Assembly: GCF_003991155.1 (NCBI RefSeq)
Contig: NZ_CP031295.1
From: Escherichia coli
GTDB lineage: Bacteria > Pseudomonadota > Gammaproteobacteria > Enterobacterales > Enterobacteriaceae
DNA: 64,000 bases
Strand: one strand, 5' to 3'
Numbering within the stretch: the first letter of the stretch is position 1; each line of letters opens with the position of its first letter. The position numbers are program-made. This document shows, in pieces, positions 43,001 to 49,000 of the stretch.

Positions 43001-46000
43001 GTTGTATATCAGCCGGCAATGCCGGCGGGCTTTCTGTATTCAAAATCTGCCTGTAAAACGAGTGCCCTGTGCGTGAAAAGGGATGGGCGGTAGCGTGTCA
43101 GAACATGTCGGGAGGAATATTCCGTGAGTGATGAAGCCGATGAAGCATATTCAGTGACAGAACAACTGACCATGACAGGAATAAACCGGATACGCCAGAA
43201 AATAAATGCTCATGGTATTCCTGTTTATCTCTGTGAAGCATGCGGAAATCCTATTCCGGAAGCCCGGCGGAAAATATTTCCCGGTGTGACGTTGTGCGTT
43301 GAATGTCAGGCGTATCAGGAAAGACAGAGAAAACATTATGCATAAGTCAGTCGCAGAACATAGTGATTTAATTCCGGATGAACATGAGTGGATATTCAGA
43401 AAACAGAAATCTTTGTATATGCGCCGGGAAATGGCGCGTTAATTACAGGTATTCCCTTCATGGCTACCGCATTTCTCGCTTTATTTTTCAACTAAGGAAT
43501 TCATGTGAATAACCCACTTGAGGCCGTCACTCAGGCGGTTAACTCCCTCGTCACAGCACTGAAACTGCCTGACGAATCCGCAAAGGCCAATGAAGTTCTG
43601 GGCGAAATGAGCTTCCCGCAGTTCAGCCGTCTGCTGCCGTACCGTGATTACAACCAGGAATCCGGTCTGTTCATGAATGACACCACGATGGGCTTTATGC
43701 TGGAAGCCATCCCCATCAATGGGGCGAATGAGTCCATTGTGGAGGCCCTCGATCACATGCTGCGCACCAAACTGCCGCGCGGTATTCCGTTGTGTATCCA
43801 TCTGATGTCCAGTCAGCTGGTTGGTGACAGGATTGAATACGGGCTGCGTGAGTTCTCTGGTCAGGTGAACAGGCTGAACGGTTTAACGCCATTACCCGGG
43901 CCTATTATATGAAAGCGGCAGCGACACAGTTTCCGCTGCCGGAGGATGAATCTGCCCGACCCTGCGCCATTACCGGTGTTTATCTCGTACTGTTCTCCTC
44001 GAAGAAAAAAGCCGGGCCGACATTCTGGAAATGGAAAACCGGTGAAAATCATCCGGGCGTCGTTACAGGGGCCAGTATCACCACACAGACGGTGGATGCA
44101 CAGGCCTTTATCGATATTGTCGGGGAGATGATTAACCATAACCCGGACTCCTGTACCCGAAAAGACGTCAGCTGGACCCGTATTCTGATCTGAATTATCA
44201 GTGTGTGGAGGACAGTTTTGATCTGAAAGTCCGGGCTGATTACCTGACGCTGGGCCTGCGTGAGAACGGCAGGAACAGCACGGCCCGCATCCTGAATTTC
44301 CATCTGGCCCGTAACCCGGAAATCGCCTTCCTGTGGAACATGGCCGACAACTACAGCAACCTGCTGAACCCGGAACTGTCCATCTCCTGTCCGTTCATCC
44401 TGACGCTGACTCTGGTGGTGGAAGACCGGTGAAACCCACAGCGAAGCCAACCTGAAGTACATGGACTCGAGAAAAGTCGAAGACCTCCTATGCCAAATGG
44501 TTTCCGTCCGTGGAGAAAGAGGCGAAGGAGTGGGGAACTGCGTCAGCGGCTGGGCTCCGGTCAGTCCTCTGTCGTGTCCTACTTCCTCAACATCACAGCA
44601 TTCTGCAAGGACAATAATGAAACGGCGCTGGAAGTGGAGCAGGACATCCTGAACAGCTTCCGTAAAACGGTTTTGAGCTGATTTCACCGCGCTTTAACCA
44701 CATGCGCAATTTCCTGACCTGCCTTCCCTTTATGGCCGGGAAAGGGCTGTTTAAACAGCTGAAAGAGGCCGGTGTGGTTCAGCGCGCAGAGAGCTTTAAT
44801 GTGGCCAACCTGATGCCGTTAGTGGCGGATAACCCCGACACCGGCAGGTCTGCTGGCACCCACCTACCGTAACCAGCTGGCGTTTATCGATATTTTCTTC
44901 CGGGGATGAATAACACCAACTACAACATGGCGGTCTGTGGCACCTCCGGCCGGTAAAACCGGGCTGATACAGCCACTTATCCGCAGCGTGCTGGACTCCG
45001 GGGCTTTGCCGTGGTGTTTGACATGGGGATGGATATAAGTCCCTGTGTGAGAACATGGGCGGGTGTATCTGGACGGTGAAACCCTGCGTTTTAACCCGTT
45101 TGCGAACATCACCGATATTGACCAGTCAGCGGAGCGTGTCCGTGACCAGTTGTCGGTGATGGCCAGCCCCAACGGTAACCGGATGAAGTGCATGAAGGTC
45201 TGCTGCTGCAGGCGGTCAGGCCTCTCTGGCTAAAAAGAACACAGGCGCGCATCGATGATGGTGGATTTCCTGAAAACGCCCGTGATAACGACCAGTATGC
45301 GAGTCACCGACCATCCGCAGCCGTCTGGATGAAATGATTGTCCTGCTGGATCATATACGCCGGCGGCACTTACGGCCAGTATTTTAACTCTGATGAGCCG
45401 TCCCTGCGGGATGACGCAAAAATGGTGGTGCTGGAGCTGGGCGGACTGGAAGACCGTCCGTCACTGCTGGTTGCGGTGATGTTCTCCCTGATTATCTACA
45501 TCGAGAACAGGATGTACCGCACGCCGCGTAACCTCAAGAAACTGAACGTTATTGATGAAGGCTGGCGTCTGCTGGACTTCAAAAATCACAAGGTCGGTGA
45601 ATTTATTGAGAAAGGCTACCGTACGGCCCGCCGTCATACCGGTGCCTATATCACCATCACACAGAACATCGTCGACTTTGACTCTGATAAGGCCTCCAGT
45701 GCTGCCCGCGCGGCATGGGGTAACTCCTCCTACAAAATTATCCTCAAACAGAGTGCGAAGGAGTTCGCGAAATACAACCAGCTGTATCCGGACCAGTTCC
45801 TGCCACTGCAGCGTGACATGATTGGTAAGTTCGGTGCGGCCAAAGATCAGTGGTTCAGTTCCTGCTGCAGGTGGAAAACCATTCCCCGCACCGTCTGTTT
45901 GTGGACCCGTTAAGCCGCGCCATGTACAGCTCTGACGGCCCGGATTTTGAGTTTGTGCAGCAGAAGCGTAAAGAGGGGCTGAGTATTCATGAGGCGGTAT

Positions 46001-49000
46001 GGCAGCTGGCGTGGAAGAAGTCAGGGCCGGAGATGGCTTCGCTGGAAGCCCGGCTGGAAGAACATGAGAAATACAGGAGTGTGGCATGAGTTCAACGCAG
46101 AAACCCGCCGACGTCACGGCAGAACAACGCATCCACTGGTGGTGGATGGTGCCGGATGCCCGGCAATGGTGTTACTGAACGCAGCCGTCAGTTACGGCAT
46201 TGTCAGACTGAACGCACCGGTGACTGTCGCCTTCAACATGAAACAGACCGTGGATGCGTTTTTGACAGCGCCAGTCAGAAACAACTGTCAGAAGCACAGT
46301 CAAAAGCCCTTTCAGCGCGTTTAACACGGCACTGGAAGCCAGCCTGCAGGCGTGGCAGCAGAAACACCACGCGGTCATTCTGGTGTCGCCTGCTGTGGTA
46401 CAGGGGCACCGGATATCACCGGGAAATCCAGCAGGATATTGCCCGGCGAATGAGGGCGGAACCATGAGATGCCGGGGCTGATTGCCCTGCTGATATGGGG
46501 CAGAGGCCGCCGCCGATCTTGGTACCTGGGGCGATCTGTGGCCGGTAAAGGAGCCGGACATGCTGACGGTGATCATGCAGCGCCTGACGGCACTGGAGCA
46601 GTCCGGTGAGATGGGCCGGAAAATGGATGCCTTTAAGGAGCGGGTGATCCGCAACAGTCTGCGGCCCCTGCCGTGCCCGGTATCGGACGCACGGAGAAAT
46701 ACGGCAGCCGGTTGTTTGACCCGTCCGTCAGACTGGCTGCGGATATCCGGGATAACGAAGGGCGGGTGTTTGCCCGTCAGGGTGAAGTGATGAATCCGCT
46801 GCAGTATGTTCCTTTAACCAGACGCTGTATTTCATCAATGGCGATGATCCGGCGCAGGTGGCCCGATGAAACGCCAGACGCCGCCCACACTGGAGAGCAA
46901 AATTATCCTCGTGCAGGGCAGTATCCGGAGATGCAGAAAGCGCTGGACAGCCGTATTTACTTTGACCAGAACGGTGTGCTCTGCCAGCGCCTCGGCATTG
47001 ATCAGGTCCCGGCACGGGTGCGCCGTTCCCGGCGATCGCTTCCTGAAGGTGGAATTTATTCCGGCAGGAGGGCAGAAAATGAAGCGAGGCCTGTGGCTGC
47101 TGATGTTCTTCCTTTCGCCGGTCATGTCCCTGCGGCGTCTGCGGATTCTGCCTGTGAGGGGCGTTTTGTAAACCCGATCACGGATATCTGCTGGAGCTGT
47201 ATTTTCCCGCCTCGCTGGGCAGTATCAAAGTCAGTCAGGTAAGGTCCCCGACACGGCGAACCCGTCGATGCCCATTCAGATTTGTCCGGCACCGCCGCCG
47301 CTGTTCAGGCGTATCGGGCTGGCCATTGGTTACTGGGAGCCGATGGCGCTGACGGACGTCACCCGGTCACCGGGATGCATGGTTAACTGGGCTTCAGCCT
47401 GCCGGCTTTGGTAAAACGGCACAGGAACGGCGAAAAGGATGAGAAGCAGGTGAACGGGCGTTCTATCACGTTCACTGGTACAAATACCCGCTGACGTACT
47501 GGCTGAACATCATCACATCGCTGGGCTGTCTGGAAGGTGGTGACCTGGATATCGCTTATCTTTCTGAAATTGACCCCACCTGGACGGACAGCAGCCTGAC
47601 CACCATTCTCAATCCGGAAGCTGTCATCTTTGCCAATCCGATAGCACAGGGGGCCTGTGCAGCAGATGCCATTGCCAGCGCCTTTAATATGCCTCTCGAT
47701 GTTCTGTTCTGGTGTGCCGGTTCGCAGGGCAGTATGTACCCGTTCAATGGCTGGGTGAGTAATGAGTCCAGTCCGTTGCAGTCCTCCCTGCTGGTCAGTG
47801 AACGCATGGCGTTCAAGCTGCACCGTCAGGGCATGATTATGGAAACCATCGGGAAAAATAACGCCGTCTGTAATGAATATCCGTCCCCAATCCTGCCCAA
47901 AGAACGCTGGCGTTACCAGATGGTGAATATGTACCCGGACAGCAGACAGTGCCACCCGTTCGGGCGCAGTGTGACCCGCTGGGAAACCGGGAAAAATCCG
48001 CCCAATACAAAGAAAAACTTCGGCTACCTGATGTGGCGTAAACGTAACTGTGTCTTCCTGTGAGGTGAATGATGAAGCTGAGTATGAAATCTCTGGCAGC
48101 ACTGCTGATGATGCTGAACGGGGCGGTTATGGCGTCAGAAAACGTGAACACTCCTGAAAACCGCCAGTTCCTGAAGCAGCAGGAAAATTTAAGCAGACAA
48201 CTGCGTGAAAAACCTGACCATCAGCTGAAAGCCTGGGCGGAGAAGCAGGTGCTGGAAAACCCCCTTCAGCGTTCAGATAACCATTTCCTGGATGAGCTGG
48301 TTCGTAAACAGCAGGCTTCGCAGGACGGGAAACCCCGGCAGGGTGCTCTGTATTTTGTGTCGTTTTCCATTCCCGAAGAGGGGCTGAAACGAATGCTGGG
48401 CGAAACCCGGCACTACGGTATTCCGGCCACACTGCGGGGCATGGTGAACAATGACCTGAAGACCACCGCTGAAGCTGTGTTGTCCCTGGTGAAAGACGGA
48501 GCGACTGATGGTGTTCAGATCGACCCGACGCTGTTTTCACAGTACGGCATTCGCACTGTACCGGCACTGGTGGTGTTCTGCAGTCATGGATACGACATCA
48601 TCCGGGGAAACCTGCGGGTCGGCCAGGCGCTGGAGAAAGTGGCCGCCACGGGTGACTGCCGGCAGGTGGCTCATGATTTACTGGCAGGGAAAGGAGATTC
48701 CGGGAAATGAAACGTATTTTACCTCTGATACTGGCTCTGGTTGCCGGCATGGCACAGGCTGACAGCAACAGTGATTACCGGGCCGGCTCTGATTTTGCTC
48801 ACCAGATCAAAGGACAGGGAAGCAGCAGTATTCAGGGCTTTAAGCCACAGGAGAGTATCCCCGGCTATAACGCGAATCCGGACGAGACAAAATATTACGG
48901 TGGCGTGACTGCCGGCGGGGATGGCGGCCTGAAAAATGACGGCACCACGGAATGGGCGACCGGTGAAACCGGAAAAACCATCACAGAGTCATTCATGAAC

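Follow-up and report, generated by a model that had tools for sequence, protein, structure and literature searches.

The window, i.e. the whole stretch of 64,000 nucleotides of an Escherichia coli plasmid analysed here (contig NZ_CP031295.1), contains the genes traR-traC-trbI-traW-traU-trbC in an order colinear with that of NZ_CP104593 (L001), NZ_CP037904 (L002), L005 and L006, yet full-length products of the genes between traR and trbC are obtained only after in-silico repair. According to the ORF listing, traC opens at position 43505 and already stops at 43912; it is followed by short fragments in all three forward frames up to trbC, the start of which is listed at 48069 and annotated at 48072. 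The F plasmid NC_002483 and the IncFIB/FIC relatives NZ_CP104593 and NZ_CP037904 possess the same gene order, and their products have the same lengths as the repaired products of the window. The DNA identity to the F-type traC-trbI-traW-traU genes is 98.0% if gaps are included and essentially 100% if the indels and two allele patches are left aside. In contrast to these F-like relatives, the four reading frames of the window are broken as deposited and the repaired TraC is a mosaic. The hosts of this plasmid family are E. coli, Salmonella and Klebsiella, all of which are Dcm-positive.

A base-level alignment against L001 and L002, in both of which the genes of the block are intact, revealed 56 small deletions (71 bases) and one insertion, all of them located within 43857-47456, and not a single indel in the other approximately 14.3 kb of the same alignment. 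Such an alignment had been proposed in an earlier note, which described a block of frameshifts confined to traC, trbI, traW and traU; the 57 indels bear this out. The neighbouring tra genes are intact, as was also claimed: each of the 26 flanking tra and trb genes (traM to traR and trbC to traI) is present in a single piece and 98-100% identical to the references. The span of 43860-47700 given at that time describes a real block, but its actual limits are those listed in Table 1, and the nearest intact CCWGG sites place the outer left bound within 43655-43856 and the outer right bound within 47457-47543. The distance of 4564 bp from traC to trbC is correct for the start of trbC in the ORF list. 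In the references the distance to the annotated start of trbC (48072) is 4637 bp, and the region of the window is therefore shorter by 70 bp (1.5%). Since the block begins 352 nt inside traC and ends 377 nt inside traU, it is indifferent to gene borders. With about 61 events, the 3669 bases of the repaired block have an error density of 1.7%.

Table 1. Coordinates of the error block, its bounds, the affected genes and the error-free islands
Feature	Position	Strand	Remarks
Error block	43857..47456	.	56 deletions (71 b), 1 insertion, 4 motif-bound substitutions; alignments vs L001/L002
Last intact CCAGG left of block (outer bound)	43654..43658	.	
First intact CCTGG right of block (outer bound)	47544..47548	.	
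traC (VirB4-type T4SS ATPase)	43505..46089	+	35 indels (-43 b); first lesion 352 nt in; repaired 875 aa
trbI	46086..46467	+	5 indels (-5 b); repaired 128 aa
traW	46464..47082	+	9 indels (-14 b); repaired 210 aa
traU	47079..48063	+	8 indels (-8 b), only in first 377 nt; remaining ~600 nt clean; repaired 330 aa
Clean island 1	44151..44427	.	Error-free; three F-type allele SNPs at 44222, 44237 and 44267
Clean island 2	45359..45858	.	Error-free; two A5 runs intact; F-type allele patch 45378-45688

The remainder of the 64-kb window is free of homopolymer- or motif-type indels of 1-4 bases. A few multi-base indels are present at 29999-32018 and 38398, where the leading region is non-coding and divergent. 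These were considered as additional error blocks but rejected, since they comprise several bases and lie within a naturally divergent non-coding region.

Repair of the indels alone restores four open reading frames of exactly the reference lengths without any stop codon. The repaired TraC contains the sequence CGTSGAGKTG, which confirms the earlier reconstruction of the Walker A region; two G residues are lost here at position 44948 of the window. The repaired TrbI is an exact match to a very common intact protein (4479 collection blocks), the repaired TraU does not differ from that of L001 at all, and the sole mismatch of the repaired TraW to L001 originates from a substitution in a CCWGG site at 46864. 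The mosaic TraC (N258, Q637) was sought on record in two versions, and neither was found. Most probably, traC, trbI, traW and traU are intact in the real plasmid.

The lesions occupy characteristic sites. Inside the block, 11 of the 12 CCWGG (Dcm) sites are altered, nine of them by an indel and two by a change from CCTGG to CCCGG, compared to none of 39 sites in the alignment flanks; chance alone would yield at least 11 altered sites out of 12 with a probability of 9e-12. Homopolymers of at least five bases are corrupted in 16 of 19 cases within the block and in none of 67 cases in the flanks. Broken down by length, 10 of 135 homopolymers of three bases, 8 of 35 of four, 13 of 15 of five, 2 of 3 of six and the only one of seven bases are affected. 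Altogether, 34 of the 57 lesions fall into homopolymers of at least three bases and 10 into CCWGG, while the other 13 are short or dinucleotide-repeat losses. The opinion that bases were lost inside G/C runs is correct for many lesions (17 in G, 7 in C), but not for those in A (6) and T (4) runs or for the two remaining classes. Deletions and insertions occur at a ratio of 56:1, indels and private substitutions at a ratio of 57:4, and all four private substitutions are located within CCWGG. Private substitutions outside the methylation motifs, large deletions and stops after frame repair are absent from the block. The Dam motif GATC was tested as a further error motif and dismissed, as none of 12 sites is altered.

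Downstream of the block, no more than 8 substitutions, all located in 48250-48999, and no indel separate the flank from intact plasmids over 16.5 kb (100.0% identity, rounded). Compared to L001, there is no substitution from 41500 to approximately 44220, a range which spans the left edge of the block, and none across the right edge. The idea that the block arose at a recombination junction was dismissed, because the L001 allele is continuous through both edges and only two short internal patches switch the allele. The two largest error-free gaps within the block (the clean islands in Table 1) coincide with these two patches, the second of which comprises 15 SNPs, mostly at third codon positions. 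Outside the islands the susceptible sites are nearly saturated with errors (16 of 17 homopolymers and 11 of 12 CCWGG sites), whereas none of the 31 susceptible sites inside the islands is corrupted, with 5.1 expected (P about 1e-4, computed after the gaps had been noticed).

Judging from this pattern, the block is very probably an uncorrected error patch of the Oxford Nanopore (ONT) type in an otherwise accurate assembly and not the result of gene decay. About 3.6-3.9 kb of raw long-read consensus would have been left uncorrected inside a plasmid sequence of short-read accuracy. The basecaller would have miscalled the Dcm motifs (CCWGG) containing 5-methylcytosine and under-called the lengths of homopolymers, and such systematic errors would persist in the consensus. 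The view of the earlier note that the lesions are a sequencing artefact and not natural decay is thus supported by the indel to substitution ratio of 57:4, the absence of stops after repair, the nearly perfect flanks and the absence of the lesions from the plasmids and complete E. coli genomes of the collections. Its more specific proposal of homopolymer under-calling agrees with the bias towards deletions but is too generic, since the corruption of 11 out of 12 Dcm sites together with the untouched Dam sites identifies an ONT profile. In ONT consensus sequences of Enterobacteriaceae, errors in Dcm motifs dominate, followed by errors in homopolymer length (PMC6591954), and the published rates are approximately 0.4% and 0.13-0.53%, respectively (Wick, Judd & Holt 2019, PMC6591954). 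The window resembles this profile of Dcm-positive Enterobacteriaceae in its deletion-biased errors in CCAGG/CCTGG and homopolymer lengths. In contrast to the published profile, homopolymer errors (about 56% of the events) outnumber Dcm errors (about 23%), the density of 1.7% exceeds the published rates, and the errors are restricted to one block instead of being spread over the assembly. Such a density lies in the upper range of ONT consensus sequences and points to an old basecaller or a low long-read depth.

Over the block, identities reached at most 98.0% in the more than 5000 plasmid hits and the 3080 E. coli records, and the lesions of the window are therefore shared by none of these records. 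Some of its lesion sites are also hit in independent datasets, as expected of systematic rather than random miscalls. NZ_CP122914 and NZ_CP065102 differ from L002 by one and three deletions, respectively, and by no substitution, and all four deletions are located on lesion sites of the window (the A7 run at 44005, CC[T]GG at 44467, G6 at 44532 and G5 at 44902, in window coordinates); PGAP marks traC of NZ_CP122914 as frameshifted. The Logan contigs L008 and L009 carry a lesion in the same CCTGG as the window at 43857, but the lost base is T in L008 and C in the window and L009, and the three allelic backgrounds are different. L008 has an otherwise nearly clean tra region of 20 kb with one frameshift in traC and three other indels, which are changes in homopolymer length, while L009 is laden with errors (10 indels in 4 kb). 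An identical truncated TraC product of 135 aa is present in independent Logan assemblies; a second fragment of the broken products, with 191 aa, is absent from the public assemblies. Shared ancestry of the 135-aa fragment was considered and rejected, because the different base losses within one motif on unrelated alleles indicate a recurrent error site.

Genuine pseudogenisation, with about 57 real frameshifts in traC to traU and a plasmid unable to transfer itself, would take the sequence as it is given, namely broken, and other deposited plasmids, for instance NZ_CP122914, also carry a traC annotated as frameshifted. On paper, the outcome equals that of natural decay of the tra region in non-conjugative IncF virulence and resistance plasmids, where the VirB4-type ATPase is lost and oriT, relaxase and coupling protein are kept; the earlier note was right in principle that the plasmid could not transfer itself if the lesions were real, but the point is moot. 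Where a tra region decays naturally, IS insertions are typically seen alongside large deletions, stops and substitutions. Nothing of this kind is present here: the lesions are indels of 1-4 bases at error-prone sites, and neither a mixed lesion spectrum nor an inheritance of the lesions by relatives was found. No private substitution falls outside CCWGG, and 57 indels directly adjoin a flank that has only 8 substitutions over its 16.5 kb. Inside the block, corruption affects nearly all long homopolymers and Dcm sites, outside it none; the block ignores gene borders and its lesions occur in no relative. Moreover, once traC had been frameshifted, neither selection nor any mechanism would lead to 56 further lesions at just these classes of sites and in this stretch only. 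Pseudogenisation is thus extremely unlikely. One could also think of localised hypermutation over the 3.6-kb tract by mismatch-repair deficiency, Vsr/Dcm-linked mutagenesis or error-prone repair synthesis. In favour of this, mismatch-repair defects lead to frameshifts in homopolymers, and mutations are known to be frequent at Dcm sites. However, these processes act genome-wide, yet none of the 67 long homopolymers in the flanks is affected, and deamination of 5-methylcytosine would give C to T changes at the inner C of CCWGG and not the observed base losses and T to C changes at the centre. Since mutation could not attain such a near-saturation without accompanying substitutions, the probability of this scenario is close to nil.

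Errors of another platform, i.e. homopolymer errors of 454, Ion Torrent or PacBio CLR sequencing or poor gap-filling by Sanger sequencing, might account for the 34 lesions in homopolymers, as flow-based and low-coverage PacBio data also contain deletion-biased homopolymer miscalls. Nevertheless, this origin is very unlikely, since the corruption extends to 11 of the 12 CCWGG sites, most of which have lost a base outside any homopolymer (CC[T]GG, CC[A]GG) or show a change of CCTGG to CCCGG, and flow-based errors would include over-calls, compared to the observed ratio of 56:1. Miscalling specific for the Dcm motif would not be expected from flow-based chemistry or PacBio base calls. For ONT basecallers, in contrast, motif-specific miscalling of Dcm-methylated DNA has been documented (PMC6591954). 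A Maxam-Gilbert or Sanger artefact at methylated C was discarded on general grounds: the loss does not typically concern the inner C, and the contraction of homopolymers would stay unexplained. It is also conceivable, though rather improbable, that the error patch hides one or a few real mutations, for which the lesion in the CCTGG at 43857 and that in the A7 run at 44005 are candidates. The identical 135-aa TraC in independent Logan assemblies and the nearly clean L008 with its single traC frameshift speak for such a mixture, and, as homopolymers are natural hot spots of slippage, a small number of the 57 lesions, perhaps just one, could be genuine. On the other hand, the loss of different bases on different alleles argues against shared ancestry, L009 is visibly error-laden, the three other indels of L008 all concern homopolymer length, and the loss of a central base from CCWGG is not slippage. 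In particular, we see very little chance that the one-base loss at traC codon 118 (43857) marks a real mutational hot spot, hit repeatedly and switching conjugation off, beneath an otherwise artefactual block. A base is missing from this CCTGG in several independent datasets with different tra alleles, and the product has 135 aa each time.

If the block is a nanopore-type consensus patch, the coincidence of the two clean islands with copy-specific SNP patches suggests, as the preferred reading, that a second, nearly identical copy of traC-traU was present in the sample and blocked the polishing with short reads. The short reads would have been placed uniquely, and the errors fixed, only near copy-specific SNPs, and the two clean islands would exist because of this. 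In repeats escaping short-read correction (Polypolish, PMC8812927), polishing that depends on unique mapping would leave error-free islands of this kind around copy-specific SNPs. Within the 64-kb window itself, no second copy of the block was detected. Alternatively, a hybrid assembler might have used long-read consensus to span a gap in the short-read graph; the sharply bounded stretch of long-read quality inside sequence of short-read quality resembles the long-read-consensus bridges of Unicycler (PMC5481147).

A single unpolished patch has here very probably created four false pseudogenes. A virulence plasmid with genes for aerobactin, Sit and colicin could thereby be falsely classified as conjugation-defective and only mobilisable. 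Artefactual products of this kind do enter the public databases, as illustrated by the 135-aa TraC fragment in other assemblies and by the traC that PGAP calls frameshifted in another plasmid, which is affected at one of the lesion sites of the window. The occupancy of motif and homopolymer sites in combination with the identity of the flanks allows such patches to be diagnosed without reads. The destruction of four genes is almost certainly not a biological feature; the biological importance of the block is nil, and it is very probable that the plasmid possesses a normal F-type transfer system.

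Fragmentation of the reading frames from traC to traU, as the earlier note had described it, was confirmed in an ORF map of 41-51 kb. From its start codon, traC stays open for only 135 codons, and between this stop and trbC the map shows no more than short fragments, spread over each of the three forward frames; therefore, the fragmentation is real and lies where the note had placed it. The genes traB, traP, trbD, trbG, traV and traR are all intact, and with a GC content of 52-60% the composition across the region is ordinary. The closest of thousands of F-like plasmids reached 98.0% identity in a megablast search with 43400-48200 as query, 4801 query bases corresponding to 4871 reference bases in the best match. 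Aligned to the relative plasmids L001 (NZ_CP104593) and L002 (NZ_CP037904), in both of which traC, trbI, traW and traU are annotated as intact, the window exhibits 56 deletions (71 bases) and one insertion entirely within the block (see table), and none in the other approximately 14.3 kb of the same alignment. Since its edges lie 352 nt inside traC and 377 nt inside traU, the block does not respect gene borders.

Coordinates of features in the window and indels per gene relative to L001 and L002
Feature	Coordinates	Indels	Remark
IS1, first copy	3332-4100		
IS1, second copy	9370-10137		
IS1, third copy	25620-26387		inverted relative to the first two
traB	40023-41450		intact
traC	43505-43912	35	start to premature stop; indels counted over the whole gene (to 46089)
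CCAGG	43654		last intact site before block, its outer bound on this side
Block	43857-47456		
First error-free gap	44151-44427		
First F-type patch	44222/44237/44267		
Second error-free gap	45359-45858		
Second F-type patch	45378-45688		maximum extent 45364-45813
trbI		5	
traW		9	
traU		8	
CCTGG	47544		first intact site after block, its outer bound on this side
trbC	48069/48072		
traN	48707-50515		after trbC

The note had attributed the lesions to homopolymer under-calling and had proposed to tabulate them against intact traC-traU. This tabulation bears out the homopolymer part for 34 of the 57 lesions, which shorten runs of at least three bases, but A, C, G and T runs are all affected, ten lesions fall within the Dcm methylation site CCWGG (usually as CC[T]GG, CC[A]GG or [C]CTGG) and the remaining 13 comprise further short losses and losses in dinucleotide repeats. 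Within the block, 11 of the 12 CCWGG sites are altered (nine by indel, two by CCTGG to CCCGG), compared with 0/39 in the flanking parts of this alignment; the probability that 61 random events touch at least 11 of 12 five-base sites is 9e-12. Homopolymers of at least five bases are shortened in 16 of 19 cases in the block and in 0/67 in these flanks, and none of the 12 Dam GATC sites in the block is hit.

Re-insertion of the missing bases and removal of the extra one restored traC, trbI, traW and traU to 875, 128, 210 and 330 codons, identical in length to the reference and free of internal stops, and the repaired TrbI exactly matches a protein that occurs in 4479 listed blocks of the public collection. 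Scored against five references, the window has only four private substitutions (44468, 46051, 46161 and 46864), all in CCWGG, in addition to one complex change within a GGG run at 45242-45243. The residual changes W864R in TraC, L26P in TrbI and W137S in TraW stem from CCWGG-site substitutions and TraC R590K from the complex error, while TrbI R14Q and C15R are peculiar to L001.

The block shows the published Oxford Nanopore consensus-error profile of Dcm-positive Enterobacteriaceae: Dcm motifs and long homopolymers are nearly saturated, deletions outnumber insertions 56:1, other private substitutions are lacking, the edges are sharp and the flanks near-perfect. Wick et al. (2019, PMC6591954) report that CCAGG/CCTGG accounted for about 70% of the consensus errors obtained with default models and that most of the others were homopolymer-length errors. 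Given the error density of 1.7% in the block and the preponderance of homopolymer errors, the basecaller was probably an older one or the consensus thin. The artefact interpretation of the note is supported and is sharpened to nanopore-type methylation-motif and homopolymer error in an unpolished patch.

The same sites are hit in other data. The truncated TraC of 135 aa is on record as a protein in independent read-derived assemblies. At traC codon 118 (window 43857), the CCTGG has lost one base also in the contigs L008 (SRR19086806; position 10116) and L009 (ERR5353126), which carry different tra alleles, and the outcome is the identical 135-aa fragment. L008 has an F-type allele that differs from the window by about 200 substitutions, and it lost the T where the window lost a C; its 20 kb contain three further indels, all of them homopolymer-length changes. 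L009 contains ten indels within 4 kb, most of which affect homopolymers, and shares the losses at window 43857 and 44068 (G5 to G4; 3419 and 3638 in L009). Two deposited complete plasmids without any substitution relative to L002 in this segment have single-base losses in traC, namely NZ_CP122914.1 one (L015 1113; traC labelled 'frameshifted' by PGAP) and NZ_CP065102.1 three (L016 1582, 1647, 2021). All four fall on lesion sites of the window (A7 at 44005, CC[T]GG at 44467, G6 at 44532, G5 at 44902) and probably represent long-read errors left over in public records. That identical sites are hit in unrelated data indicates systematic miscalling; shared mutational hot spots are less likely.

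Real pseudogenisation of the four genes is excluded for practical purposes, since stops, substitutions and large deletions are absent, nearly all susceptible sites are hit inside the block and none outside, and the lesions occur in no relative. A genome-wide effect would be expected of mismatch-repair deficiency or of Dcm/Vsr-linked mutagenesis; deamination would turn the inner C of the motif into T, unlike the changes observed. Flow-based or PacBio chemistry would explain the homopolymer errors but leaves the Dcm motif effect and the 56:1 deletion bias unaccounted for. Under the nanopore-type reading, the 57 lesions may still include one or a few real ones.

Local patches of long-read-error sequence have two documented origins, a long-read-consensus bridge in hybrid assembly (Unicycler, PMC5481147) and a repeat missed by polishing; short-read polishing often leaves errors in repeat regions, where read placement is unreliable (PMC8812927). 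The two largest error-free gaps in the block coincide with the two allele-switch patches. Together, they contain 24 three-base, five four-base and two five-base homopolymers without a hit, where the hit rates elsewhere in the block predict about 5.1 (P ~1e-4, the gaps being picked post hoc). Short reads might be uniquely placed only near copy-specific SNPs, so that polishing would work there and leave clean gaps; from the gaps at such SNPs we infer that traC-traU has another, almost identical copy elsewhere in the sample. The window itself contains no second copy of the block.

From 41500 to ~44220 and from ~46900 to 48250, the window follows the L001 allele without any substitution. Both patches switch from this type to the exact F-type allele of L004, L005 and L006 without further differences, the second by 15 SNPs, most of them in third codon positions, and they account for TraC K258N and R637Q. 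The mosaic TraC (N258, Q637) and its DNA junction are absent from 3816 plasmid hits and the protein collection. It could be a private natural gene-conversion mosaic or result from cross-talk of two co-resident tra alleles in assembly or polishing.

Relative to the nearest relatives for each part of the window (L001-L003, L006 NZ_AP027785, L007 NZ_ON943059), 1-kb bins outside 43-48 kb contain no small indels, except for a few multi-base differences at 29999-32018 and 38398. These fall in non-coding sequence that has diverged and resemble natural variation rather than error-type lesions; they include a 10-bp CCCCG-repeat difference at ~30756 and a 7-bp CTGACAG loss at 38398, directly after traA. 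At 42201-42460, the window has a short trbD together with trbG, as in F and L001, whereas in L002/L003 trbD is long and trbG is missing. TraD shares 98.4% identity with its L002 counterpart; at the 3' end of traD (window 60370-60386), the alignment is broken and overlapping near 60377-60386, consistent with a repeat-length polymorphism. By the content of positions 1-33000, the window is a ColV/aerobactin-type IncF virulence plasmid, with colicin M/B/V immunity and activity genes, an OmpT-like protease, mig-14, RepFIB, sitABCD, iucABCD-iutA and sopAB.

As the note had stated, the flanking tra genes are intact: 26 tra/trb genes are present in a single piece with 98-100% identity. The downstream 16.5 kb differ from many intact plasmids by eight substitutions, all within 48250-48999, and no indels (100.0% identity by rounding), and in these near-identical plasmids all four block genes are intact. 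The traC-traU block is almost certainly not a biological feature.
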